64,000 nt of DNA from an uncultured archaeon. Its GTDB lineage: Archaea > Asgardarchaeota > Thorarchaeia > Thorarchaeales > Thorarchaeaceae. The notes under the pieces are model-generated. The model was given only the letters and a program-made list of their open reading frames with translations. It ran no database searches and was not told the DNA's origin. Within the stretch, counting starts at the first letter, position 1, and each line of letters starts with the position of its first letter. Below are positions 40,417 through 56,417 of this stretch, in pieces. The stretch covers positions 102,161 through 166,160 of the forward strand of contig CAZSWP010000001.1 of the NCBI GenBank assembly GCA_964610875.1. Direction: 5' to 3'. The translations under genes and the position numbers were made by a program.

Positions 40417-42406
40417 CAGCCACACCTCTTTCAAATCGAAGCATCTCGTAGCCACTAAGCTGTGCTCTCCCAACACCTAGAAGTGAATCTGTTTCATCTA
40501 AGAGTAGTACCTCTTCACCTGCGCGAAGTTCATGATGAGCATCCTTTACAAACTTTGCAAGAGCTGATTTTCCTTTAGCTACAAAAGGTGCAGCATCATC
40601 ATTCATTATGACTTTATACCGTTTGGATATATCATGGTCAAGTAATTCATGACCTCCAGAGATATTGGGTGTGAGCAGACCTGATGTAGGAACGAGAGTG
40701 AAAAGAATCGCATCATTCTTGATGATGTGACGAATTTTCCCCGTACTTCTTGATCTCTTGTATGTATAGTCTCTTGAGTCCAAACAGAGATTCCACTGGT
40801 ACATGGTTATTGCATCTTGTTTTCTCCGAACTGGGTTCTGTGTATTATCTTCTTCTAATATGTCTACAATGTCATTCATTTTCTCATAAGAAGTGATGTC
40901 AAAGACTTCCTCAAGTATAGATCTTTGGTCCTCCAAAGCAATATCCCGTGACAGCCAGAATAATTGTTTGAAATCTATTGATTGAAGTAATTCTTTGACT
41001 CTTTGATGAATTACCGTCTTAGTTCTTCTATCGAGTAGATTAGGGAAGACACACTGTTGCGCAGGATGAATATGTTCCAGTTCAGATGGAACAATACCAA
41101 AGGGCGTTACGAAGAAAAGAAGTGCTTTCTCAGGAGCAATACTGTGTACAGCCCGAATAGCATCCCCAAGCGGTTCGAAAAACGGACGTGAAGCAGAGTC
41201 CGGAATGAGAATTACCGTCTCTGTATTCTTGTATGGGTATCTTTCCAATACCGTATCATGAAACCTTCTTAATTCAGGCCGCAAAATTGTTTCTGGCCCT
41301 GTATAAAGAATGGATGCAGTCCTTCCAACTATATCCCATTTTTCAATTTCTTCATAGAATTTAAGATATACTTCAAGAGCGTCCATTAGGGCGGGATGGC
41401 CTCTAGCTCGTATTGCTACAAGTTCGAAGAGTTTCTCACTGAGTATTGCCTGTCGAATACGACGAATCTCTCCTGCACTCACATAGAGATTATGTGCCAT
41501 GAGATGGAGGTCTTGTTCATCCTTTTTCATCTGTTTGATGTCATCAGCTGTAGTCTTGCTACAAATTGGACAGTTGCATGGTAGTTCCTGCAAGTCCTTC
41601 AAGTGAACAGTACCACTTGTAAGCATCATGCGTCCTGACTCTGCGAACTTGGCATATGATGCAGAATCAAAGAAATCACATCCAAGTAGTGCAGCTTGAG
41701 CAAAGAACATTGGGTGTCCACAACCAAAGAGATGGACAGGTCTTTCAGGAGGTAGATATCTCTTCGATGCCATCACTATCTCCACGATATCTGCATATCG
41801 ATATCTCTCCATCAGGGGCACCACGCCCCCTATTGGATGAACATCAAGATTGAGTTCAGCTAAACATTTCGCAGAAACTCCTCTTAAATCTGGGAAAGTG
41901 CCTCCCTGTACTGTCCCAGCAAGAAGCATCTCTCCTTTCTCATTGACCGTATCTCGTGCTCGTTGTAAAGACAGTTCCATGTCTTCTTCTATTTGCTTTC
42001 TTCCCGCACTCAGGTCTGAAAATATATCAAGAATTGTTCCTATATCGCTACCAATTGCGTTCTGGAATCTAACAATCTCAAGTGGATCAATCTCATCTGA
42101 CGGCAATGAATGAAAATACATCTGAAATGTTCCAGAGTCTGTCATTATCGGGCCGTCAAAATCAATTAGAGAGTGTACTCCTTCACTTAGTGCTTTTTCT
42201 TTGAATTTATATCTTGAATGGATGATATAAGAATTCGTGATCACCATTTCGAAATTAAACCGCTCTCTCAATTCCTTAGGAGTGATTGCTGATTTTGCAG
42301 GATGAACAACTGGCATCAACAGAGGGGTCTTAACAGTCCCATGATCAGTGATGAATTTGCCATATCTTGCCATCCCATCTTTTGCTTTCAATTCGAAACG
42401 GCTCAT
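40382..42406 (-). CDS. tgtA: Archaeosine tRNA-guanine(15) transglycosylase with C-terminal PUA domain
   Basis: TPLLMPV, ITNSYII, MTDSGTFQ, GGVVPLME, HLFGCGHP, FDSASYA, CNCPIC...HNL. Confidence 0.95.
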   Translation of the reverse strand: MSRFELKAKDGMARYGKFITDHGTVKTPLLMPVVHPAKSAITPKELRERFNFEMVITNSYIIHSRYKFKEKALSEGVHSLIDFDGPIMTDSGTFQMYFHSLPSDEIDPLEIVRFQNAIGSDIGTILDIFSDLSAGRKQIEEDMELSLQRARDTVNEKGEMLLAGTVQGGTFPDLRGVSAKCLAELNLDVHPIGGVVPLMERYRYADIVEIVMASKRYLPPERPVHLFGCGHPMFFAQAALLGCDFFDSASYAKFAESGRMMLTSGTVHLKDLQELPCNCPICSKTTADDIKQMKKDEQDLHLMAHNLYVSAGEIRRIRQAILSEKLFELVAIRARGHPALMDALEVYLKFYEEIEKWDIVGRTASILYTGPETILRPELRRFHDTVLERYPYKNTETVILIPDSASRPFFEPLGDAIRAVHSIAPEKALLFFVTPFGIVPSELEHIHPAQQCVFPNLLDRRTKTVIHQRVKELLQSIDFKQLFWLSRDIALEDQRSILEEVFDITSYEKMNDIVDILEEDNTQNPVRRKQDAITMYQWNLCLDSRDYTYKRSRSTGKIRHIIKNDAILFTLVPTSGLLTPNISGGHELLDHDISKRYKVIMNDDAAPFVAKGKSALAKFVKDAHHELRAGEEVLLLDETDSLLGVGRAQLSGYEMLRFERGVAVNPRHAAKNSA

Positions 42407-42504
42407 ACAAATCACTCATTTTCATTGATGTACCACGAATGAACCTTTTGTTATGGTTGACCGGGATGCAACACTTTAAGACCACTCATTTCAATTTTCA
42501 AATT

Positions 42505-43785
42505 ATGTTCACATCAACCGCTTTAGTTATTCAAAGAAGAAAGTACAATGAACCTAATCTCTTAGATGAATTTGAATCTTTAGCAAGAACTGCAGGTTTT
42601 GAGATAATTGGCTCCTTTGATATAACTACTCCACCTTCTGCAAAGTATGGGATAAGTAAAGGGAAGGTTGATGAGATCACAACTTGGATCGAGGTCAATG
42701 AACCCGATTTCGTCCTGTTCACACCTTTTCTTCGTTCTAGTCAGGTATTTCGATTGATGGAGGAATGGAGTGTTGAGGTCAGAGACCGTACTCAAGTCAT
42801 TCTCGAAATTTTTGCTCGACATGCTAAGACACAACAAGCAAAATTACAGATTGAAAAAGCGCGACTGGAATATGAGCTCCCTTTTGAGCGTCATCAGATT
42901 CGAATTCGACTACAGAATGAACACACTGGTGATAGACCAACGACCGACCAGGTCGGTGTTGGTGAGGATCTTGTCACTAAGCGAATGACAGAGCTCCGAA
43001 GAAGAATCTCTACTATTCAGAAAAAATTGGAGAAGATTCAACAAGTTCAAGAGTTAAAGAAGAAGAAAAGATCTGGTCATGGATTTGTAGAAGTCACTCT
43101 AGCCGGTTATACAAATGCTGGGAAGAGCACACTTCACAATGCATTGACCGACTCGGGTGTTGAAATTGCAGATTCGCTTTTCACAACACTTGGTACAAAA
43201 GCTGCTGAGTTGGATGTCAAAGGCCGTGATGTGATATTATCTGATTCAGTAGGATTCATCAGTGATTTACCTCATGAACTTCTTCAAGCATTCAACACTA
43301 CATTGATGGAAATCTCAGAAGCCAACATCATAGTATTAGTTGTTGATGCATCTGATTCCATTGAAGAGATGAAACGTAAATTCGGCTCATGCCTTGTCAC
43401 CTTTTCAGAAATTGGTGCAAATGGCATTCCTATTGTCATAGCACTTAATAAAATAGACCTTCTTGAAAAACACGAACTTGATGAGAGAGTGCAATTTCTA
43501 TCTCAAGAAACAGCGGATATCATGCCTATTTCAGCACAAGAGGGTATTAATCTAGACAATCTGGTACAAAAGATACTCTCGAAATTGCCTCAATTGGGGT
43601 GGTATAAGGTCAAAGTCCCGATTGGCAATACAGGTATGTCGATTCTGTCATGGTTACACGAAATCGGAATTGTTAATGATACACAGTACGGCACTGATTC
43701 AATAGAGATTCATGTACAGCTTAACAGCGTTATGTTCGATAGACTCGCAAAGAAAACTGACTGCATTAGTATAGATCAACTCTAA
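42505..43785 (+). CDS. hflX: Ribosome-splitting GTPase HflX
   Basis: DRTQVILEIFARHA..QAKLQIE, GYTNAGKST, LFTTL, DSVGFI, NKID; ATG 42505 likely start. Confidence 0.95.
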   Translation: MFTSTALVIQRRKYNEPNLLDEFESLARTAGFEIIGSFDITTPPSAKYGISKGKVDEITTWIEVNEPDFVLFTPFLRSSQVFRLMEEWSVEVRDRTQVILEIFARHAKTQQAKLQIEKARLEYELPFERHQIRIRLQNEHTGDRPTTDQVGVGEDLVTKRMTELRRRISTIQKKLEKIQQVQELKKKKRSGHGFVEVTLAGYTNAGKSTLHNALTDSGVEIADSLFTTLGTKAAELDVKGRDVILSDSVGFISDLPHELLQAFNTTLMEISEANIIVLVVDASDSIEEMKRKFGSCLVTFSEIGANGIPIVIALNKIDLLEKHELDERVQFLSQETADIMPISAQEGINLDNLVQKILSKLPQLGWYKVKVPIGNTGMSILSWLHEIGIVNDTQYGTDSIEIHVQLNSVMFDRLAKKTDCISIDQL

Positions 43786-43871
43786 GAAATCCTAATTGTT
43801 TCAGCATTCACAATTCTAAGTAGAAATTTTCTTTTTGATGAAACACAAGCTTTTAGACGGTACTAGATTCG

Positions 43872-44564
43872 GTGAACATGAGGTCATCTCCAATGATTGC
43901 GCTCGATCTAAAGTCACCTGATGAGATTCTTAGTATGTTAGAAGGATACGATAAGATTGTGTTATTTGGTGACTCTGGTTGCGCTCAATTGTGTGATGTA
44001 GGTGGATTATTACAATTAGAGGACATGGAGGAGTTTCTCACAAAGAATGGAAAGCAGGTTCTTGGTCATGTTTTTGTTGAAGGTGGAATATGTGATAAAT
44101 CAGCACTTCATAGAGACATGAAATCACATCAAACGATTCTTGTTGAAGCAGATGCTTTTCTTGTACAGGCATGTGGTGTCGCTACTCAAACCATAACTGA
44201 AGAGATGCCCGAAAAAGAAACCTTCCCCGCGGCTGATTCAAAATTCCTTGGAGTTATGCCAAAGAGGTTCCACCATGAAGAAATGTGTTCATTGTGTGGT
44301 GAATGCATTCTCCATCTTACTGGAGGTATTTGTCCCATTGCTCGATGTCCCAAAGGTATCCTGAATGGTCCTTGTGGTGGATCGATGGATGGGAAATGTG
44401 AAAGAGATGATAATACGGATTGTGTTTGGCACCTAATTTATGAACGCTTGGAAAAGCTGGGTAAACTCGAAAATATTCGCAAGATTTGGGAGATTAAAGA
44501 TTGGAGCTTATCACAAGGTCCTCACAAAACTAATCATGAGGATGCTTGGATTGGACCAAGTTAG
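43872..44564 (+). CDS. metV: Methylene-THF reductase small Fe-S/Zn subunit (MetV-like)
   Basis: GCAQLC, ACGVA, CSLCGEC..TGGICPIARCPKGILNGPCGG..GKCE..DCVW..IYERL; directly upstream of metF. Confidence 0.9.
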   Translation: MNMRSSPMIALDLKSPDEILSMLEGYDKIVLFGDSGCAQLCDVGGLLQLEDMEEFLTKNGKQVLGHVFVEGGICDKSALHRDMKSHQTILVEADAFLVQACGVATQTITEEMPEKETFPAADSKFLGVMPKRFHHEEMCSLCGECILHLTGGICPIARCPKGILNGPCGGSMDGKCERDDNTDCVWHLIYERLEKLGKLENIRKIWEIKDWSLSQGPHKTNHEDAWIGPS

Positions 44565-44582
44565 ATATTAGGTTGTGAGAAT

Positions 44583-45545
44583 GTGAATTCTTATTCGTGT
44601 GGAGAAAAATCGGGGCCAACCAAAACGAGATTGTGCCATCTTCTCGAACAGGGTAAATTTGTAGTAACAGGTGAGGTTGCTCCTCCGCACGGTGCCAACC
44701 CCGCAAGATTCGTTGAGAAAGTACAACTTATTCGTAATCATTGTGATGCCATAAATATCACAGACAATGTGAGAGGGATTCCCTCGATGAGTAGTATGGT
44801 CTGTGCGCATCTAGTTCTCGATAATAATGCAGAACCAATAATGCAGATGTCTGCTAGAGATAGAAATCGAGTGGCTGTTGAAAGCGAGTTATATGGCGCA
44901 TATGCATTGGGTGTCAGAAATGCACTTTTTGTCACAGGAGATCACACTCTATTAGGTTCCCATCCACATACAAAGATGGTTTATGATTTGGACTCGATTC
45001 AGACCCTCTCGCTTGCCAGTCATCTTATGAAAGGGACCGATCTTGCTGGTGATGAATTAGAGGGTTCTCCCAAATTCTTTCTAGGTGCAACATTCAATCC
45101 CTATGCTGATCCTATCAAATTTCAAGCTATGAGGACACAAAAGAAGGTTGAAGCAGGTGCAAGATTCTTCCAAACTCAGGCTATTTATGATATCGATAGA
45201 TTGCAGGAATTCATGGAATTAGTACCTGATCTTGGAGCTTATGTTCTAGCTGGTATAATTCCTCTAAAGGGGCCAAAGATGGCTTGGTTCATGAACACAC
45301 GAATTCCTGGAATTAAAATCCCTCAGGAGATGATGGAACGCTTGGAGAATGCAGGTGATTCTTTGAAGGGAAAAGAACGAATAGAGGCAACTCGAGCTGA
45401 AGGTTTGCGAATTTCACTTGAAACAATCGAAGCCGTTAAGAACATCAAAGATGTCGATGGCATTCATATTATGGGTGTAGGTTGGGAAGAATGCATCCCC
45501 CTCCTTGTAGAAGATTCAAAATCTTATCCCCGTCCAGGAGTGTGA
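44583..45545 (+). CDS. metF: Methylenetetrahydrofolate reductase (MetF-type)
   Basis: VTGEVAPP, DAINITD, RDRNR, VTGDH, KKVEAGARFFQTQ, GIHIM. Confidence 0.93.
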   Translation: MNSYSCGEKSGPTKTRLCHLLEQGKFVVTGEVAPPHGANPARFVEKVQLIRNHCDAINITDNVRGIPSMSSMVCAHLVLDNNAEPIMQMSARDRNRVAVESELYGAYALGVRNALFVTGDHTLLGSHPHTKMVYDLDSIQTLSLASHLMKGTDLAGDELEGSPKFFLGATFNPYADPIKFQAMRTQKKVEAGARFFQTQAIYDIDRLQEFMELVPDLGAYVLAGIIPLKGPKMAWFMNTRIPGIKIPQEMMERLENAGDSLKGKERIEATRAEGLRISLETIEAVKNIKDVDGIHIMGVGWEECIPLLVEDSKSYPRPGV

Positions 45546-45549
45546 AGTT

Positions 45550-46467
45550 ATGTTTGTTTTCAAGAAAGAACAGCAGACCTATGATTTCGGAGGCGTTACG
45601 ATTGGAGGAAATCCTGGTGAACATCCCACTACAATAATTGGGGGTTTGTTCTTCAAAGGTCAACCAATCGTTGAGAATACTAAGGAGGGTCTCTTCGATG
45701 CAAATCTCGCAACAGAATGGGTGCAAACGGGAGTCACAATGTCAGAAAAGACACGGCACCCACTTATTATCCAAGCATATGGAAGAACTGCAACAGCGAT
45801 GGAGAAACATATCTCTTGGTTGAGTGAAAATTTTGATGGGCCATTCATGTTTGAGTCTACAAGCTCAAAAGCGAGAATACGTGGCATTGAGTATTGTGAT
45901 GAGGTCGGACTAGACAATAGAGCGATATACAACAGCATTAATCTCTCTACGAAACCTGAAGAACTTGGAATTCTCAAAGATAGCTCGCTCGATATGGCTG
46001 TCGTCTTGGGTTGGTCACCAAAGGCTACAACATTGCCTGAGAGAATGAATACTGTGAAAGACATGATTGAACTCTCGAGAGAGTATGGTATAACCAAAAT
46101 GTTGGTTGATCCAGCTACAATGCCAGTGGGAGCAGGTTATGGGCTTGATTATCGGACGATAGTAGCAATCAAGTCTGAGTTCGGTCTTCCTACATGTTTG
46201 GGTCCTCATAATGCACCTTCTGCATGGAAACTACTAAAGCAACCCAATTTCGATGATGAATCAACCCATCTTGCTTGTGTTGTAGCCTCAACGGTTGTTG
46301 CACAAGTCCTGGCAGCTGATTCGATCATGTATGGCTCAATGATTCGGACAAAGGAGGTATTTACAGCAGTTTCATTGATAGCTAATGCGATTGCAACTGC
46401 GTCCGCTGAAGCGAATAGAGCTTTAGGTCTAGAACGTGATTACTTTGATCCCCCCATCTTCGAATAG
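45550..46467 (+). CDS. mtrH: Pterin-dependent methyltransferase, MtrH-like (copy 1)
   Basis: MFVFKKEQ..IGGNPGEHPT...AIYNSIN...HNAPSAW...MYG. Confidence 0.88.
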   Translation: MFVFKKEQQTYDFGGVTIGGNPGEHPTTIIGGLFFKGQPIVENTKEGLFDANLATEWVQTGVTMSEKTRHPLIIQAYGRTATAMEKHISWLSENFDGPFMFESTSSKARIRGIEYCDEVGLDNRAIYNSINLSTKPEELGILKDSSLDMAVVLGWSPKATTLPERMNTVKDMIELSREYGITKMLVDPATMPVGAGYGLDYRTIVAIKSEFGLPTCLGPHNAPSAWKLLKQPNFDDESTHLACVVASTVVAQVLAADSIMYGSMIRTKEVFTAVSLIANAIATASAEANRALGLERDYFDPPIFE

Positions 46468-46478
46468 GAGAAGTCGAC

Positions 46479-47174
46479 ATGACTACAATACAAGCAAAAA
46501 AGACATGGCCTCCCATCCCTGGAGATTTTGAGATTCGAAATGAAGAATCTTGTGTAGCAGTATGTACACTTGGAAAGAAAATCGAAGTTGATGCTGAGTA
46601 TGCAATCATTGGCACATGTAAGACTGAAAATATTGGCATTGAACGCATGATTGTGAATATAATATCAAATCCCCGGATCAGATATTTCATTCTAGCCGGG
46701 CCTGAAGTGCCCGGACATAGGACTGGTTCATCACTTCTTAGTTTGTATGAAAATGGAGTTGAAGCAGAATCCAGGAAGATAGTCAATGCACCCGGTGCCA
46801 TTCCATATATTGAGAATGTACCTCTAGAAGGAGTAGAACGTTTCAGAGAACAGGTTGACCTCATTAATATGATGAATAACTCTGATATCCAAGCAATAGA
46901 ACAAAAGGTTGCAGAGCTAAATTCAACCAATATGGAAGTTTTTCCTGCTGAGGCGATATGGATTGATTTTGCTGCGAATACTTCTCAGAAACCGGTTCAG
47001 GAACTAAGCGGACCTGTATCATTACTGCCAGAATATGGAAGAATGTATGATGCATCAAGTGCCTTGGTCTACTCTTATCTCAAACACGCGATTGTGTCAA
47101 AAGAACCTTCCCAAGTATCTATTCAAATGAAGGTGACAGATACAGGTACAACTCTCTATGTTAAGGAGGAATGA
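46479..47174 (+). CDS. mtrA: Corrinoid protein MtrA-like, soluble (no C-terminal TM anchor)
   Basis: WPPIPGD, VAVCTLG, KTENIGIE..NIISNPRIR, EVPGHRTG (cobamide His), GAIPYIEN. Confidence 0.92.
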   Translation: MTTIQAKKTWPPIPGDFEIRNEESCVAVCTLGKKIEVDAEYAIIGTCKTENIGIERMIVNIISNPRIRYFILAGPEVPGHRTGSSLLSLYENGVEAESRKIVNAPGAIPYIENVPLEGVERFREQVDLINMMNNSDIQAIEQKVAELNSTNMEVFPAEAIWIDFAANTSQKPVQELSGPVSLLPEYGRMYDASSALVYSYLKHAIVSKEPSQVSIQMKVTDTGTTLYVKEE

Positions 47175-48115
47175 ATGAAATGTTTGTTTTTGACAAGGAA
47201 CAATACATCTACAAAATCGGTGATATGAAAATCGGTGGACAACCTGGTGAGAACCCTACCGCCTTGGCTGGCACTATATTCTATAGTGGTGACAAGATCG
47301 TATCTAATCCCAATGATGGAGAATTCGATAAGAAAAGGGCAAAAGCGTTGATTCAGAAACAGGATGAAATGTCAGAGATAACTGGGAATCCGTCAATTGT
47401 ACACATTTTTGCTGAATCTGCTAAAGCAATGGGGAGATATCTTGATTTTACTGTGGAAGTCTCTGACTCTCCTATAATTATAGATTCAAATGATGCAGAT
47501 GTGAGGGCAAAGGCTCTTCTTTATGCTGAAGAGATAGGAATTCTTGACCGTGTTATTTACAATTCTCTCAATATCTCCTTCACAGAATCCGAACTCAATG
47601 TGATTGAAGAAACCGGTCATGACTTAGCATTAGTTCTTGCGTTCAACCCGCAAGACCCGTCAGTCAGTGGCAGGCGTGAGGTCCTTGAAAATGGTATACT
47701 CGAAATGGAGGAAGGGCTGTTCCGCACATGCGAACGTATTGGAATCAGGCGTCCTATTATTGATACGGCGGTGACTGCAATGGGCGCAGGAGCCGGTGTT
47801 GGAGTTGGATTCACATTCGTTGCAAAATCATTGTATGGATATCCTGCTGGTTCTGGAATTCATAATGCCCCCTCTTCTTGGCCATGGCTGAAGGGAATAC
47901 GAAAGGAGAACAAAAGTGCTTACAAAGCTGCTGATTACGCTTCTAATGCTTTAGCAATCATGATGAGTGCAGACTATCTTCTTTATGGTCCAATTAAGAG
48001 CTCGACGGAAGTATTTCCAGTCGCAGCAATGAGCGATACACTTGTAGCAGAATATACAGTATCTGAAACTGGTATTGAACCTCCTAATGACCATCCATAT
48101 AGAAAGCTACTGTGA
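47171..48115 (+). CDS. mtrH: Pterin-dependent methyltransferase, MtrH-like (copy 2)
   Basis: MFVFDKEQ..IGGQPGENPT.LAGTIFY, IYNSLN, GSGIHNAPSSW.WL, LLYGPI, HPYRKLL. Confidence 0.92.
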   Translation: MNEMFVFDKEQYIYKIGDMKIGGQPGENPTALAGTIFYSGDKIVSNPNDGEFDKKRAKALIQKQDEMSEITGNPSIVHIFAESAKAMGRYLDFTVEVSDSPIIIDSNDADVRAKALLYAEEIGILDRVIYNSLNISFTESELNVIEETGHDLALVLAFNPQDPSVSGRREVLENGILEMEEGLFRTCERIGIRRPIIDTAVTAMGAGAGVGVGFTFVAKSLYGYPAGSGIHNAPSSWPWLKGIRKENKSAYKAADYASNALAIMMSADYLLYGPIKSSTEVFPVAAMSDTLVAEYTVSETGIEPPNDHPYRKLL

Positions 48116-49539
48116 GTGTGAAAAGAATGACCTCTCGCCCAAGAGTTTTATCCCCAAGATGGATTGGGGCATCATCTATTCGTAAAGGAGGCTATTTCGT
48201 TGTAGCTTCTGTAGAACTAGGCAATACTACAACTAAATGTATTCTTACAGCAACTAATCTAAAAACTGCTGAGATTTTTCAATTATCAAAAGAAGTGGTG
48301 ATGACTCGAGACGTTCGTCGACCTAAGACTGGTGAATCCATCTTTGGTGAAACTCTAGTCGGAGTACAACTAACGAAAGAAGCAGTGGCAGAACTCGTTG
48401 AAAACACTCTAAAAACAGCACTTGAGAGTGCTTCTTTGAATATTGAATCAGATTTGCATTTTGTAGTTCGTTCTACCGGAGTGACTGCTGGTTTTGCCAA
48501 ACCTGAAGAAACTGATATGTTGATTAAAGCACTTGCGGAAGGTTGTCTTCAAGCTGGAGTGGCACCAAGGAAAATGACAGCTGCCATTTCGATTGACTCT
48601 CTTCCACCAGGTCTTCAGGAGTATAGTTGGCTTAAGCGTGTATATTTTGATGGAGCTGTGGCAAGTGGTCTACCCCCTGCAAATACTACGGTGGTTGCGA
48701 ATGAGATGGAGGGAGAGCTCGTTACTGCAGGACTCAAAGGGGCTGCAAAGTCCACGAATATCGATTTTCGAAATCCTGTCATAACATTAGATTTTGGTAC
48801 CACTTTGGCCGGACGAATTACTGACAGTTCATATCCATACGCAAAAACAATTGGCACATTTGTAGGATTGGGCGGAGCTATTCCAGACGCACTTGTCCGT
48901 GGTTGTAAAGATATAAATCCTGAAACTGGATGTGTACTTGACATAGAGCGTAATGTTCGACAAGTTGACAAAGCTGGAATCTCTGATTTTCTAGATGCGA
49001 TTCTAGAAGGGGTTACCATAAAGAAAGTAGATACAGAGATGAAGAAATTCGGTACTGTTCCAGTTAATATACAAGCAGCTCGAGAGTCCTCATTGTCCAT
49101 CCTTGGTGTGGACGCGGGAGAAAATGGATCAAATCTGAACAAGCTCCAAAAGGTTGGTAAAGATATCTCTGAAGAGATTGGAGTTGCTGGTTTGTTAAGG
49201 GTGATTGATTACCTTCAGGTCAAAATACTTCAGGAACTAGTTAATCTATCTGAGGAAAATGACTTAGTCGAAGAAACCACTGCTCTAGGGTTGACAGGAA
49301 GAGCAATTACCTCAGGTAAAAAGCCTCAGCTGATTTTTCGATCACTGAAAAAACTTGACGGGTCTTTTTGGACTGAGAAACATCCCTTGCTTATGGTTGA
49401 AGATGGTTTAGCTCTTGGCGCAGCAGTTGCATCGAGGTGCATGAATTCACTTGGTACACCTAAGAAACCCATGGGTGGGCGGCGTGGAGATAGGTGTATA
49501 ATGGCTCAAAGAGAGAAAATGCAGAAGGAAGAAAAGTGA
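48112..49539 (+). CDS. Methanogenesis marker protein 14-like (ASKHA-fold ATPase)
   Basis: VASVELGNTTTKCILTATNL, FVVRSTGVTAGF, NEMEGELVTAG, DFGTTLAGR, GITGRA-like GLTGRA, RCMNSLGTP..PMGG; follows mtrH as in methanogens. Confidence 0.88.
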   Translation: MSVKRMTSRPRVLSPRWIGASSIRKGGYFVVASVELGNTTTKCILTATNLKTAEIFQLSKEVVMTRDVRRPKTGESIFGETLVGVQLTKEAVAELVENTLKTALESASLNIESDLHFVVRSTGVTAGFAKPEETDMLIKALAEGCLQAGVAPRKMTAAISIDSLPPGLQEYSWLKRVYFDGAVASGLPPANTTVVANEMEGELVTAGLKGAAKSTNIDFRNPVITLDFGTTLAGRITDSSYPYAKTIGTFVGLGGAIPDALVRGCKDINPETGCVLDIERNVRQVDKAGISDFLDAILEGVTIKKVDTEMKKFGTVPVNIQAARESSLSILGVDAGENGSNLNKLQKVGKDISEEIGVAGLLRVIDYLQVKILQELVNLSEENDLVEETTALGLTGRAITSGKKPQLIFRSLKKLDGSFWTEKHPLLMVEDGLALGAAVASRCMNSLGTPKKPMGGRRGDRCIMAQREKMQKEEK

Positions 49540-49602
49540 GAATGTCCTCTCAGTAGTCTTTATCTTACTATGGCATAAGCATCAGAATCAGGTCGATTAT
49601 CA

Positions 49603-50388
49603 TTGCAAATTTTGCCAATCAAGACACGAATTATCACCGAAAAAGATGACATTGTATCAGTTCTGCTTGAAGCAATAGAGGAGATGGAAATCACCCTCAA
49701 AAATAATGATATTATTGGAATTGCTGAAACCCCTCTGGGCACAACTGAAGGACAAACTGTCAAATTATCAGATGTGAAGGTTTCTGAGAATGCACGAAAA
49801 CTTGCAGAAAAGTATGATTTGATTCCAGAAGTGACTGAATTGATAGTTCAAGAGAGTGATGAGATACTTGGTGGTATCCCCAAAGTGCTTCTCACGATAA
49901 AGAACAACACCCTGATGGCGAATGCTGGAGTGGATAAATCGAACATTCCTCAAGGCTATGCATCCCTGCTACCTAGAAACTCAAAAAGCAGCGCAGAGCG
50001 AATTAAACAGGAAGTCAGAAAGCGTACAGGTGTAAGCATTGGTGTTATTGTAATTGACAGTCGTACGCAACCTCTTCGACTTGGAAATATTGGAATGGCC
50101 TTAGCAGTGGCAGGATTTGAACCGGTGGTAGACGACCGTGGTAGAAAAGATCTTTTTGGAAATGAACTTCGGATTACACGCCGTGCTGTGGCTGATAATC
50201 TTGCATCAGCTTGTACTGCAGTCATGGGAGAGTCAGATGAGTCAATTCCTGCCGCACTAATTCGTGATGCACCTGTCAAGTTTTCAGATTCCTCATTCGA
50301 TTCGTCGTCTATGTGGATCAGTCCGGATGAATGCATGTACATGGCAATCTTTGAGCAATGGCGAAGAATAACCCATAAAATTGAATGA
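49603..50388 (+). CDS. cofE: CofE-family coenzyme F420-0:L-glutamate ligase
   Basis: ANAGVDKSN, IDSRTQPLRLG, DLFGNEL, VADNLAS, MGESDE..PAALIR. Confidence 0.88.
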   Translation: MQILPIKTRIITEKDDIVSVLLEAIEEMEITLKNNDIIGIAETPLGTTEGQTVKLSDVKVSENARKLAEKYDLIPEVTELIVQESDEILGGIPKVLLTIKNNTLMANAGVDKSNIPQGYASLLPRNSKSSAERIKQEVRKRTGVSIGVIVIDSRTQPLRLGNIGMALAVAGFEPVVDDRGRKDLFGNELRITRRAVADNLASACTAVMGESDESIPAALIRDAPVKFSDSSFDSSSMWISPDECMYMAIFEQWRRITHKIE

Positions 50389-50488: not shown

Positions 50489-51829
50489 GTGAGCAATAAG
50501 ACGGTGTTAATCGATGTCCAGAACGCTGGAGCTTCTGGAGATATGTTCCTATCTGCACTAATTGACTTGATAGGTGAAAATGAATCGATTGTACCAGTTG
50601 CTGCCAGTCTACTTCTTTATGATCCTGCCATTCGTGTTAAAGTAGTACAGAAAGAAACAGCCTCGGGGACAGGCAAAAAGCTTGAAATAACAAAAGATGA
50701 ATCCTTGCGTTTCAGTCCTTCCTCATTACTAGAGATAATCCAATCAACCACAGAAGAACTGGAACTATCTAAAAATGGGGCTGAACTCTGCAAGAATGCA
50801 TTGAATGAACTACTTCAAGCTGAAGTACGAGCACATGATACTCCATTAGAAAAACTACACCTGCACGAAACTGGTTCTATAGATACTGTTCTTGATATAG
50901 TTGGAACAGTCTATCTGTTGGAAAAAACCGGTCTGCTTGATAACAAGATAATTTCCACGAAAGTAGCAGTTGGTAAAGGGACAATACAGACCGAACATGG
51001 TGAATTAGAAGTTCCAGTACCTGCTGTTGCTGAGATTATTGTTCATCATGAGGTTCCATATCATACTGGTGATGCTAATACTGAGCTATTGACACCAACT
51101 GGTGCTGCACTATTGGTAGCTCTGGCAGAGGAATTTATAGAATCCACTGAAGGTTTTGTAACTGAAAAGCACGGTGCTGGATTTGGTACCAGAGACCTCG
51201 GTGTCATTCCTAACATGCTGAAGATCAGCGTTGGTACATTTGATGTTGATAAACCCGCACCAGGATCTCTGGGGAAGCCAAAGAAGTTTAAGAAACCAAA
51301 GAAAACTGAATTTGAGAAAAAATCAAAATCCATTGCGGAGAGGAAAGAAACATTGGGCGAATGGAACGCTGACGAAGTTGTTGTTATCGAAGCTAATATT
51401 GATGATGTCGATGGTGAGGTATTGGGGAACATGTTCGATATTCTCCTAGCTGAAGGTCTGGCTTATGATGTTGTAATGATTCCTGCATACGGAAAGAAGA
51501 ATCGCCCTTGCTTTGTTGTGAAGGTAGTTGCTCCAAAACCCGGTCTGAAAAGTATTGCAGAACTCATGATCAAGCATTTAGGTACACTTGGTATCAGATA
51601 CCAAGAGTGGAGTCGACTAAAGGCTGCTCGGGAAACCATTGTTTGCAGATTAGAGGTCGATAACCAAGAGTTCATGGTGAGGGTCAAAGTTGCACGAGGT
51701 GCTGACGGAAGTATTGTGAATATAAAACCGGAAGCTGATGACCTGATGAAGGTGTCTCACGCAACAGGAATTCCTATTCGTGACCTTAAACCACGAGTTG
51801 TACTTCAAGCTCATGCTATTACCGAATAG
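50489..51829 (+). CDS. larC: LarC-family nickel insertion protein
   Basis: GASGDMFL, HLHETGSIDT, HG..VPVPA, ELLTPTGAA, EANIDD, GKKNRP, TLGIR, KPE.DD. Confidence 0.9.
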   Translation: MSNKTVLIDVQNAGASGDMFLSALIDLIGENESIVPVAASLLLYDPAIRVKVVQKETASGTGKKLEITKDESLRFSPSSLLEIIQSTTEELELSKNGAELCKNALNELLQAEVRAHDTPLEKLHLHETGSIDTVLDIVGTVYLLEKTGLLDNKIISTKVAVGKGTIQTEHGELEVPVPAVAEIIVHHEVPYHTGDANTELLTPTGAALLVALAEEFIESTEGFVTEKHGAGFGTRDLGVIPNMLKISVGTFDVDKPAPGSLGKPKKFKKPKKTEFEKKSKSIAERKETLGEWNADEVVVIEANIDDVDGEVLGNMFDILLAEGLAYDVVMIPAYGKKNRPCFVVKVVAPKPGLKSIAELMIKHLGTLGIRYQEWSRLKAARETIVCRLEVDNQEFMVRVKVARGADGSIVNIKPEADDLMKVSHATGIPIRDLKPRVVLQAHAITE

Positions 51830-54634: not shown

Positions 54635-55201
54635 ATGGTCACTGCACTATTCAAGGTTGTACTCATGGGCGACGGTTCTGTGGGAAAGACATCATTGAGA
54701 CGAACGTACATGGGTGAAGGGTTCAAAGCACAGTATATGATTACAATTGGTGCTGATTTTGCGGTCAAGAAAATGCAGCTGGAGGGAGGCCATGATGTTA
54801 GCATACAGATATGGGACCTTGCGGGCCAAGAGCATTTCAAGAGTGTCAGGTCCACGTTCTATAAAGGTGCACAAGGGTCTCTTGCTGTCTATTCCACCGT
54901 GGAACGTTCTTCATTTGATAACATAAACGCCTGGTTGGATGAGTGCTGGACAAATGCTGGCAAGAAGATACCTATTGTTCTGATTGGAAATAAGACGGAT
55001 CTCCGTGACCAGTTCAAGGACAATCCCTCCATGCAACAGACTATTGTGACAACTGAAGAAGGCCAAAAACTGGCTGATTGGATAGGCTCACAAGGAGTTC
55101 ATGTGTCATTTCTAGAGACCTCGGCTAAGACTGGAAAGAATGTCGAAGCTGCTTTCCTAGAACTAGCAATCAAGATACTAGAAGCTGGTGGATTAGCATA
55201 G
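54635..55201 (+). CDS. Rab-like small GTPase
   Basis: GDGSVGKTS, TIGADF, IQIWDLAGQE, FYKGA, GNKTD, ETSAK; no C-terminal Cys. Confidence 0.93.
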   Translation: MVTALFKVVLMGDGSVGKTSLRRTYMGEGFKAQYMITIGADFAVKKMQLEGGHDVSIQIWDLAGQEHFKSVRSTFYKGAQGSLAVYSTVERSSFDNINAWLDECWTNAGKKIPIVLIGNKTDLRDQFKDNPSMQQTIVTTEEGQKLADWIGSQGVHVSFLETSAKTGKNVEAAFLELAIKILEAGGLA

Positions 55202-55292
55202 ATTCAAATTTTTCATTGCAGATTTTCTGGATTCATAATCTTTTTAGTGAAATATCTAATCCAGAAATTGCATGCTGGTCCTGGGGTGACCT

Positions 55293-56417
55293 TTGATGCA
55301 AACAAAAGAACTGACCCTATTCCTAAAGAGAGAAACGCTAAAACCTGAAGCACAACGTGGTGGTGATATAACCCGCAGATTCGCAATGAATAAAGTGGGA
55401 CGTATGATTGCTGCTGCTCTGCAGGACCGTACAATTCGACTTTATGATGCTAGGAACTGCGAAGAGATTCAAGTACTGAATGAAGAGTTTCTTACAACTT
55501 CTATTGCATTTAGTCCAAAGGGTGATGTATTAGCATCGGGATCAGTTGGCAGAGTCATCAAGATTTGGAATATCCGTACTGGTGAAAATATTGCTACACT
55601 TGAAGGTCATACATACCCGATTCTTGCTCTTTCATTCTCTCCTGATGGTGATAAGTTAGTTTCTGGAAGTGGAGACACCACACTCATTACATGGGATTTA
55701 GATAATTTTTCACAACTTAAGCAATTGAAAGGGCATTCACTCTATGTTGTGAGTGCTGAGTGGGATCCCAAAGATAACCGGATTGTGTCCTCATCAGTCG
55801 ATTCGACCATCTGCGAATGGGACCCGTATTCTGGCAATCTATTGAACCAGATTCAAGAACACAGAACTGCAGTACAAGTAGTACGCTTTACACCAGATGG
55901 TAACAAGCTAGCATCTGGCTCTTCAGACCATAGTATTATCCTATGGGATGCTACTAGTTCGCTTAAGAAGGAGCACGTCCTATTAGCTCACGAAGAGGAG
56001 GTCCGAGCCTTAGCCTTTGATAAAGAGGGTAAATACCTCACCTCTGGCTCAAGTGACAAATCTCTCTATGTCTGGAGTATGGACTCATTGACCGTAGAGG
56101 GTGAAAGCTCTACTCGAAGTGAGGTTGATGGTATAGAGTGGTATCCGAACGAATTAGCTTTTTTGACCTCGGATGGTACAGGTGCCATTGCTCGGTGGGA
56201 GGTTCGCGAGCTGGAAGGAATGCTAGCACCATTCAACGAATTACTTGAAGAGATTAAATCTGATCCAGAACTGACCAGAAAGGAGGAGTTCATGGTCAAA
56301 TTTGAGGAGATTCAAAACCAGTACGATCCAGAAACATTAAGGGATAAACGACTCTTCTACGTCATGTGGCAATGCAAGAAAGCCCTAGGTCTCTTGAAAG
56401 GAAAGGTACGAAGATAG
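55293..56417 (+). CDS. WD40 beta-propeller protein with short C-terminal helical domain
   Basis: About 7 WD repeats (e.g. LEGHTYPILALSFSPDGDKLVSGSGDTTLITWD). Confidence 0.95.
   Translation: MMQTKELTLFLKRETLKPEAQRGGDITRRFAMNKVGRMIAAALQDRTIRLYDARNCEEIQVLNEEFLTTSIAFSPKGDVLASGSVGRVIKIWNIRTGENIATLEGHTYPILALSFSPDGDKLVSGSGDTTLITWDLDNFSQLKQLKGHSLYVVSAEWDPKDNRIVSSSVDSTICEWDPYSGNLLNQIQEHRTAVQVVRFTPDGNKLASGSSDHSIILWDATSSLKKEHVLLAHEEEVRALAFDKEGKYLTSGSSDKSLYVWSMDSLTVEGESSTRSEVDGIEWYPNELAFLTSDGTGAIARWEVRELEGMLAPFNELLEEIKSDPELTRKEEFMVKFEEIQNQYDPETLRDKRLFYVMWQCKKALGLLKGKVRR

Follow-up and report, generated by a model that had tools for sequence, protein, structure and literature searches.

A soluble Mtr-derived operon joined to methylene-tetrahydrofolate reductase in Thorarchaeota, tentatively read as a folate-linked cobamide methyltransferase

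The window analyzed here is a 64,000-nucleotide stretch from an uncultured archaeon of the family Thorarchaeaceae (GenBank assembly GCA_964610875.1, contig CAZSWP010000001.1, positions 102,161 to 166,160). At 43872–50388 it contains an operon encoding MetV and MetF, two paralogs of the methanogen methyltransferase subunit MtrH (H1 and H2), a single MtrA, methanogenesis marker 14 (DUF2114) and a CofE-family ligase. The operon is tentatively read as a folate-linked, soluble cobamide methyltransferase that derives from the methanogen Mtr complex and is kept active by marker 14. Its seven open reading frames (ORFs) lie co-oriented on the plus strand, with gaps of 18, 4, 11, −4, −4 and 63 nt. The tight packing that an earlier note on this DNA had described is borne out by these coordinates and by the Pfam and NCBIfam models with which the window proteins were assigned. 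The source assembly comprises 3.75 Mb in 124 contigs (completeness 95%, contamination 5.8%), and the nearest homologs are labelled Candidatus Thorarchaeota.

MtrA is strongly supported as a free cobamide carrier. The cobamide histidine is kept within the motif EVPGHRTG, where His80, invariant in 21 orthologs, aligns with the cobalt ligand His84 of M. marburgensis MtrA (8q3v_A). No hydrophobic segment is present, the maximum Kyte-Doolittle 19-residue mean being 0.9. Alignment and hydropathy thereby bear out the earlier description of an MtrA with its cobamide His and without a membrane anchor. The protein scores 176 against TIGR01111, under the cut-off of 249. In place of the methanogen membrane helix it carries a conserved, soluble C-terminal tail of ∼70 residues (about 160–231) with the motifs LPEYG, HPS and GT.L.GKE. 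By contrast, the MtrA encoded on contig L070, from a related lineage outside Thorarchaeota, ends in a hydrophobic helix. Structural modeling with AlphaFold2 (AF2) gives an N-terminal domain with a predicted local distance difference test score (pLDDT) of ∼90, a disordered linker (160–179) and five short strands at residues 180–230 (pLDDT 52–69, a low-confidence prediction); the tail could be a docking element for the MtrH dimer.

A soluble module with no normal Mtr complex beside it in the source genome is supported by the genome-wide searches as well. The earlier note had recorded mtrBCDEFG and mcr as missing from the window and had asked whether mtrB–G genes elsewhere might form a normal Mtr; across the source genome, MtrB, MtrD, MtrE and McrA were likewise not found. 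For MtrB and the small subunits the search was by tblastn with the L070 sequences as queries; it gave no match, and MtrF- and MtrG-like genes were likewise not found. MtrD was found in none of 21 Asgard genomes, 13 of them from Thorarchaeota. The two MtrH proteins, the MtrA and the methylene-tetrahydrofolate reductase (MTHFR) of the operon are the sole members of their families found in the source genome.

Sequence comparison strongly supports a descent of both MtrH paralogs from methanogen MtrH. The two share 32% identity and both exceed the PF02007 gathering cut-off of 22.8 (H1, 246 bits; H2, 345 bits), while the TIGR01114 equivalog cut-off of 271.4 is passed by H2 (358) and missed by H1 (240). 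The best match of H2 by sequence in the PDB is M. mazei MtrH (9qtp_o, 249 bits). MtrH is the closest relative of MtgA (6sj8), and the MtgA model scores the two proteins at 158 and 208, far under its cut-off of 550. Four pterin-holding residues have been modelled in M. marburgensis MtrH (Asp102, Asn128, Asp195 and Asn229; PMC10998594). H2 retains all four (Asp105, Asn131, Asp198 and Asn232); H1 retains three (Asn128, Asp187 and Asn221), its first Asp being replaced by Glu102, which is invariant in 120 orthologs. By this residue comparison both proteins look pterin-competent, in keeping with the pair of pterin-binding methyltransferases proposed earlier.

The phylogeny of each MtrH, which the earlier note had called for, was obtained from a 102-row alignment (quick IQ-TREE, with SH-like approximate likelihood ratio test (SH-aLRT) support and outgroups from the exhaustive representative search). 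It places H1 and H2 within the clade of Methanosarcina, Methanosphaera and Methanoregula MtrH (SH-aLRT 99). H2 sits close to the methanogen proteins, its sister being the uncultured-lineage MtrH of contig L070, where mtrH and DUF2114 are co-oriented and a membrane-anchored mtrA and mtrB are also encoded. H1 lies on a long stem of 0.99 changes per site, followed by slow evolution, the pattern of a duplication and subsequent change of function. To judge from its sequence relatives, H1 is a Thorarchaeota-only paralog. An exhaustive search of 1.8 billion representatives returned one full-length 50%-identity cluster, beyond which identity does not exceed 36%, and the matches listed by a word-index search (at least 120) are Thorarchaeota orthologs, one of them labelled Lokiarchaeota.

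The core of the operon is conserved throughout the family. Within it, MtrA occurs in 71 of 76 genomes, and ∼17 kb around mtrA was compared in 20 genomes, from 15 genera, onto which the window proteins were mapped. This survey, also suggested in the earlier note, finds H1–MtrA–H2–marker 14 co-linear and intact in 20/20 loci, at 50–70% identity. MetF adjoins mtrH1 in 18 of these loci and MetV lies near the operon in 13, while a CofE–LarC pair adjoins the mtr block in all loci that reach that far. In one relative (L038) the pair stays together while the mtr block beside it is inverted; CofE–LarC thus behaves as a conserved neighbour and not as a necessary part of the operon, and LarC probably stands outside the methyl-transfer module. 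Mean pairwise identity is 54–64% for the core proteins, 71% for the CofE-like protein (the highest at the locus) and 56–60% for the housekeeping neighbours, and operon and housekeeping proteins are therefore under comparable constraint. Unrelated neighbours (tRNA-guanine transglycosylase, HflX and PolB) are equally syntenic across the family, and for this reason adjacency within the family is weak evidence of function. That same synteny of housekeeping genes would also be expected of a non-functional leftover of an ancestral Mtr whose neighbourhood has simply been kept, and ‘remnant’ is the published reading (PMC9635834). Yet the four core genes are intact across all the genera compared and as conserved as housekeeping proteins, their catalytic and cobalt-ligand residues do not vary and translational overlaps link the genes, which makes a leftover very improbable.

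Genomic neighborhood analysis strongly supports the joining of the only MTHFR found in the genome (MetF, with MetV) to the mtr operon. The two genes are adjacent, which fits a MetVF-type methylene-tetrahydrofolate reductase. In three genera, one or two co-oriented SBP_bac_5 genes (peptide/nickel-type) stand beside metF, either between metV and metF or replacing metV. The possibility that these inserted genes encode electron-transfer partners was rejected, as they are SBP_bac_5 solute-binding proteins.

Marker 14 is strongly supported as an ATPase of the ASKHA (actin/Hsp70/sugar-kinase) fold that travels with mtrH and mtrA. Its gene overlaps mtrH2 by 4 nt, and the mtrH–DUF2114 adjacency recurs outside Thorarchaeota, on contig L070. 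In the sections of Adam et al. 2022 that deal with it, DUF2114 (m26) is linked with Mtr through its distribution, phylogeny and synteny, Thorarchaeia included (PMC9635834). Structurally, the AF2 model (pLDDT 82.6, predicted TM-score 0.85) has tied top matches at Z 15–16.6, among them an AnmK-like protein, CoaX, the ATPase subunit of benzoyl-CoA reductase, FtsA and Kae1. A dehydratase activator (Z 14.9) and a diol-dehydratase reactivase (Z 12.7) follow, and Foldseek also lists RACo (3zyy, 4c1n), which matches no more closely than many kinases do. The fold searches thus give ASKHA, with the kinase, Kae1, activase and reactivase subfamilies not separated. A sequence comparison with the PDB gave nothing meaningful. 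Corrinoid reductive activases of the RACo/RamA type combine an ASKHA ATPase domain with an electron-delivering Fe-S domain; in marker 14 Pfam recognised no Fe-S domain, and four cysteines are invariant. The modelled fold is compatible with an ATP-dependent activator or chaperone acting on a cobamide protein, short of proving one.

Complex prediction gives weak support for a contact between MtrA and marker 14. The score of the pair is 0.43 (median of 0.25, 0.43 and 0.49), compared with 0.00 for the best of three controls; at least 66% of contacts agree between runs, and the partner pLDDT is at least 78. For calibration, the mark used was passed by 58 of 80 solved complexes and by 2 of 110 mismatched pairs, and passing scores of 0.60 or less comprised seven of those solved complexes and both of the mismatches.

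The identity of the methyl carrier is central to any functional reading. The source genome holds FTHFS, MetF, GcvT and dihydropteroate synthase (DHPS) together with Ftr, Mch and Mer. Among Thorarchaeota, FTHFS is present in 13/13 genomes, and enzymes of the tetrahydromethanopterin (H4MPT) type are patchier (Ftr in 9/13, Mer over its cut-off in 9/13; Mch in 6/6 genomes tested). However, RFAP synthase, which catalyses the committed step on the way to methanopterin, turned up in just 1 of the 81 family genomes and was not detected in the source genome, whereas the same model reaches 307–353 bits in four other Asgard families and is positive in methanogen, haloarchaeal and Sulfolobus controls. The only Pterin_bind match in the source genome is a bacterial-type DHPS (TIGR01496, 232 bits), and no DHPS-like gene of the MJ0301 type was found there. 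Enzymes of both branch types are therefore present, but judged by gene content only a folate-type carrier can, on present knowledge, be made. The two one-carbon (C1) branches posited in the earlier note accordingly hold for the enzymes, which do co-occur, and falter for the carriers; its own caveat, that the organism might have a single C1 carrier, is touched by this result. Two side observations concern these genes. The DHPS has a C-terminal extension of ∼130 residues and is encoded next to an MptE-like HPPK and a divergent GcvT. The Mer gene is matched by its model in two pieces within one 394-residue frame, as it is in the relative G069, which suggests an in-frame insertion.

The CofE-like ligase is consistent with a folate-type carrier. 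FolC was not found in 21 Asgard genomes (the source genome and 20 relatives), and the earlier remark that CofE-family enzymes add glutamates is apt in this light. The source genome has two CofE-family genes, scored against TIGR01916 (the CofE equivalog) and TIGR04132 (putative folate metabolism gamma-glutamate ligase); of the two, the copy in the operon has diverged further and tends in its scores towards the folate-ligase model. In Chlamydia a CofE homolog, FolC2 (CT611), replaces FolC (de Crecy-Lagard et al. 2007, PMC1971073). Given this precedent and the failure to find FolC, the operon protein is a candidate folate/pterin glutamate ligase, and its gene may, by analogy, replace FolC.

The carrier evidence also bears on the shuttle between H4MPT and folate pools that the earlier note had put forward. 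In such a shuttle, H2 would act on methyl-H4MPT on the Mer side and H1, beside MetF, on methyl-folate, with MtrA between them. The duplicated, fast-diverged MtrH with its pterin residues would be a natural stand-in for the lost acceptor (coenzyme M) half-reaction, and in the gene order MetF stands beside H1 and marker 14 beside H2, the latter as in the mtrH–DUF2114 locus outside Thorarchaeota. The source genome encodes FTHFS and MetF on one side and Ftr, Mch and Mer on the other, and no other known consumer of either methyl-pterin was detected (no ACS, Mcr or MetE/MetH). Solubility, two pterin-competent MtrHs and both enzyme types are thus points of the proposal that stand. Against it, 80 of 81 family genomes yielded no RFAP synthase, which other Asgard families do have; a DHPS-like gene of the MJ0301 type was not found either, and two genomes (G143 and G116) without Ftr, Mer or ACS keep H1–MtrA–H2–marker 14 and MetVF intact. 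Acetyl-CoA synthase (ACS) occurs in only 4 of 12 relatives, and most members therefore have no catabolic or acetogenic outlet. With neither ACS nor Mcr, a bridge at the methyl level has no evident catabolic purpose, and C1 carriers could in any case exchange units at the formaldehyde or methylene level. On balance, the shuttle is somewhat unlikely. Feeding of an acetyl-CoA synthase by the operon was rejected for the source genome, where neither CdhC nor CdhD was found.

The folate-linked methyltransferase proposed at the outset would work as follows. MetFV would interconvert methylene- and methyl-pterin on a carrier most likely of the folate type, made via DHPS and glutamylated by the CofE-like ligase. 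H1 and H2 would probably form a heterodimer, by analogy with the MtrH and MtgA homodimers (PMC12774963, PMC10998594; in the Mtr complex MtrH is a homodimer, PMC12774963), and would carry the methyl group back and forth between methyl-pterin and the Co(I) of MtrA. Marker 14 would use ATP to bring the cobalt back to its active state or to keep it there. In the least certain step, CH3-Co(III)-MtrA would serve a partner encoded outside the operon, which methylates a small-molecule acceptor.

For that acceptor homocysteine makes the most sense, because no other methyl-level C1 sink is visible in the source genome. A complete homocysteine operon of the methanogen type is encoded there, with aspartokinase, aspartate-semialdehyde dehydrogenase (Asd), a COG2122-type protein and COG1900 fused to a 2x[4Fe-4S] ferredoxin domain; a class I S-adenosylmethionine (SAM) methyltransferase gene follows it. 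MetE/core-MetE (PF01717) gave no match in 13 Thorarchaeota genomes, and the homocysteine-binding domain of the MetH/BHMT type (PF02574) was found in none of the same 13, the source genome included. Gene content thus indicates that homocysteine is made and that MetF makes methyl-pterin, with no known enzyme detected that joins them in the source genome. The only proteins known to handle methyl-pterin there are the two MtrHs with MtrA, and MtrA has been predicted as the methyl donor for methionine synthesis in methanogens (Price et al., PMC7857596). The operon could on these grounds be the core of a split cobamide-dependent methionine synthase, in which an MtrH loads methyl groups from methyl-folate onto MtrA for transfer to homocysteine, with marker 14 as the ATP-driven reactivation module. 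This more specific proposal is unlikely as it stands. Its homocysteine step would fall to a neofunctionalised H1 or to an unlinked thiol methyltransferase, e.g., a URO-D-family protein. As a corollary, methanogen Mtr would have its long-missing activator in marker 14. Donation by MtrA to a MesA/core-MetE enzyme was rejected, phmmer with Asgard core-MetE queries having found no match in the source genome in addition to the negative PF01717 result, although enzymes of the MesC type may escape both searches. An H1 Zn/thiol site was likewise rejected, as only a single Cys and two His of H1 are invariant and they form no convincing motif.

Several observations weigh against a folate-linked methyltransferase serving such an acceptor. 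No acceptor enzyme was identified, and neither MtrH has an obvious Zn/thiol site. A MesC-type enzyme could escape detection, because the PF01717 control is negative in M. acetivorans, which has only MesC (PMC7857596). Four of eight other Asgard families sampled are without MetE and MetH, and with such absences common, auxotrophy is possible. The homocysteine operon is found in only 3 of 13 family genomes. The source genome also encodes two MT2-like proteins of the URO-D family. H2 is canonical by score and phylogeny while Mch, Ftr and Mer persist, and H2 may use an H4MPT-like carrier from another synthesis route. Finally, the sequencing runs listed with the operon are three DNA runs from one microbial-mat study, with no RNA run.

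The URO-D-family genes were recorded in their own right. One directly follows the gene for a 215-residue MtgC/MtbC-like corrinoid protein and encodes an MtaA-like methyltransferase, the pair being flanked by genes for a FAD oxidoreductase and a histidine-kinase-type ATPase. The other lies behind a 225-residue ORF without a family match.

The MtgA relationship raises the reverse direction of flow, in which a methyltransferase of the MT1 type would methylate MtrA, MtrH would pass the methyl group to folate, and MetFV, FolD and FTHFS would oxidise it for reducing power and ATP. The closest relative of MtgA (6sj8), the methylcorrinoid:tetrahydrofolate methyltransferase of Desulfitobacterium, is MtrH, and MtrAH outside methanogens has been proposed to funnel methyl groups into C1 pathways (PMC9635834, PMC8407382). 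FTHFS is universal in the family, and solute-binding protein genes repeatedly lie between metV and metF. However, in none of 20 genomes does the operon or its surroundings encode an MT1, MttB was not found in the source genome, and the sole MtaA-like/corrinoid pair has its own corrinoid protein. Two pterin-type methyltransferases would, moreover, be left unexplained. Methylotrophic entry is accordingly quite unlikely, and the alternative offered in the earlier note, an unknown methyl donor feeding into MetVF, fares poorly on the same ground: with MttB not found, it has no candidate MT1.

The features of the locus, and related loci elsewhere, are collected in Table 1. Flanking genes of the window encode housekeeping and Asgard signature proteins (an archaeosine tRNA-guanine transglycosylase, HflX, PolB, an ABC transporter, a Ras-like GTPase and a WD40 protein), and no Hdr/Mvh-type partners are among them. 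The Ras/Rab-like small GTPase gene and the WD40 beta-propeller gene that follows it are typical Asgard eukaryotic signature proteins.

Table 1. Features of the operon, its neighbours and related loci. Positions without a contig name refer to the window; scores are in bits.
Feature	Location	Strand	Model matches and remarks
MetV, Cys-rich small subunit of MetVF-type methylene-pterin reductase	43872-44564	+	PF12225/DUF5981 116
MetF, methylene-tetrahydrofolate reductase	44583-45545	+	PF02219 (MTHFR) 108
MtrH1 (H1), diverged MtrH paralog	45550-46467	+	PF02007 246; TIGR01114 240 (cut-off 271)
Soluble MtrA	46479-47174	+	PF04208 184
MtrH2 (H2), canonical-type MtrH	47171-48115	+	PF02007 345; TIGR01114 358
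Methanogenesis marker 14 (DUF2114, m26, arCOG04866)	48112-49539	+	TIGR03285 595 (cut-off 274)
CofE-family gamma-glutamyl ligase (operon copy)	49603-50388	+	PF01996 235; TIGR01916 187 (cut-off 180.65, marginal pass); TIGR04132 120 (cut-off 350, not reached)
LarC-type nickel-insertion protein, conserved neighbour	50489-51829	+	PF01969 313
Ras/Rab-like small GTPase gene, then WD40 beta-propeller gene	54635-56417		
Second CofE copy	contig C21		TIGR01916 232; TIGR04132 74
Homocysteine operon	contig C24, about 43600-49000 (L076:1611-6986)	−	
MtgC/MtbC-like corrinoid protein and URO-D-family methyltransferase	contig C31:42928-44589 (L066:1228-2892)		URO-D-family gene at 43576-44589
Second URO-D-family gene	contig C3:32224-33249 (L078:4222-5235)		
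DHPS, MptE-like HPPK and divergent GcvT	contig C32, about 40800-44000 (L073)		
Mer	contig C49:14934-15971		
SBP_bac_5 insertion, relative G128	L042:10612-15159	co-oriented	
SBP_bac_5 insertion, relative G087	L040:10898-14599	co-oriented	
SBP_bac_5 insertion, relative G046	L036:10880-12952	co-oriented	

The role of MtrAH outside methanogens is an acknowledged open question (PMC9635834, PMC11291895), and marker 14 is a conserved methanogen protein awaiting a function. The operon brings both together in a four-protein, membrane-free form, which ought to be much more tractable for expression and assays than the 24-subunit Mtr complex. Mtr requires ATP-dependent activation; if marker 14 does activate the MtrA cobamide, it would be identified as the ATP-dependent activator of an enzyme that is key to energy conservation in methanogenesis. 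If methionine synthesis is what the module feeds, it would represent a methionine synthase of a new kind and would close a gap in the biosynthesis of a lineage near the origin of eukaryotes. Thorarchaeota are routinely annotated with both the H4MPT and the folate branch of the Wood-Ljungdahl pathway, and the family-wide failure to find RFAP synthase and FolC calls for a re-examination of which C1 carrier they use.

Parts of this picture are already published, namely MtrAH alone with DUF2114 in Thorarchaeia (PMC9635834) and soluble MtrA/MtrH in other Asgard archaea (PMC11291895). The literature searched held no account of the Thorarchaeota-specific second MtrH, the joining to MetVF, the anchor-less, tailed MtrA or the gaps in carrier and methionine-synthase genes. 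The closest precedent is the set of MtrAH and m26 remnants of Thorarchaeia (Adam et al. 2022, Sci Adv, PMC9635834), which are the same genes in the same lineage, with no other Mtr subunits. The sections of that paper concerned with them propose a generic methyltransferase role and do not describe the second MtrH, the MetVF link, the CofE-like neighbour or the loss of the MtrA helix.

Soluble MtrA and MtrH types in non-methanogens are also known as the MtrA–MtrH fusions of Atabeyarchaeia, Freyarchaeia and other Asgard archaea (PMC11291895). Unlike the Thorarchaeota proteins, these are distinct from the canonical clade, fused and encoded beside methylamine methyltransferase genes, and neither marker 14 nor MetF has been reported with them. 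Lower-scoring MtrA matches in frames of ∼505–590 residues were seen in the Asgard families f7, f13, f16 and f19 (genomes G006, G012, G017, G023, G038, G041 and others); by length and score, they are consistent with such fusions.

The CofE-like ligase is best compared with Chlamydia FolC2 (CT611, PMC1971073). Both are CofE homologs in organisms where DHPS is present, FolC is not found and the neighbours are folate-related; they differ in that the window protein passes the CofE equivalog model (187 versus 180.65) and misses the folate-ligase cut-off (120 versus 350). The glycine-betaine system MtgA/MtgB/MtgC of Desulfitobacterium hafniense (6sj8, 6sk4) is likewise soluble and uses an MtrH-family enzyme for methyl exchange between corrinoid and tetrahydrofolate. 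Its corrinoid protein, however, is of the MtgC type with a B12-binding domain rather than MtrA, and its MttB-family MT1 was not found here. With methanogen Mtr (MtrABCDEFGH; 8q3v, 9qtp/9qts), the operon shares the His ligand of MtrA, the TIM barrel of MtrH with its Asp/Asn pterin residues and the adjacency of mtrH and marker 14. It differs in that no MtrB–G genes were found, and with them no part that methylates coenzyme M and pumps Na+, nor any Mcr; its MtrA is anchor-less with a soluble tail, and it has two distinct MtrHs where Mtr has a homodimer of one.

Finally, the logic of the module resembles that of MetH, which likewise combines a pterin barrel, a cobamide carrier and a reactivation module and is fed by MetF. 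No PF02574 domain was found in the 13 Thorarchaeota genomes, and apart from the distant pterin barrel the proteins are unrelated to the domains of MetH. Whereas MetH is reactivated via SAM, reactivation in Thorarchaeota would use ATP and an ASKHA-fold protein.

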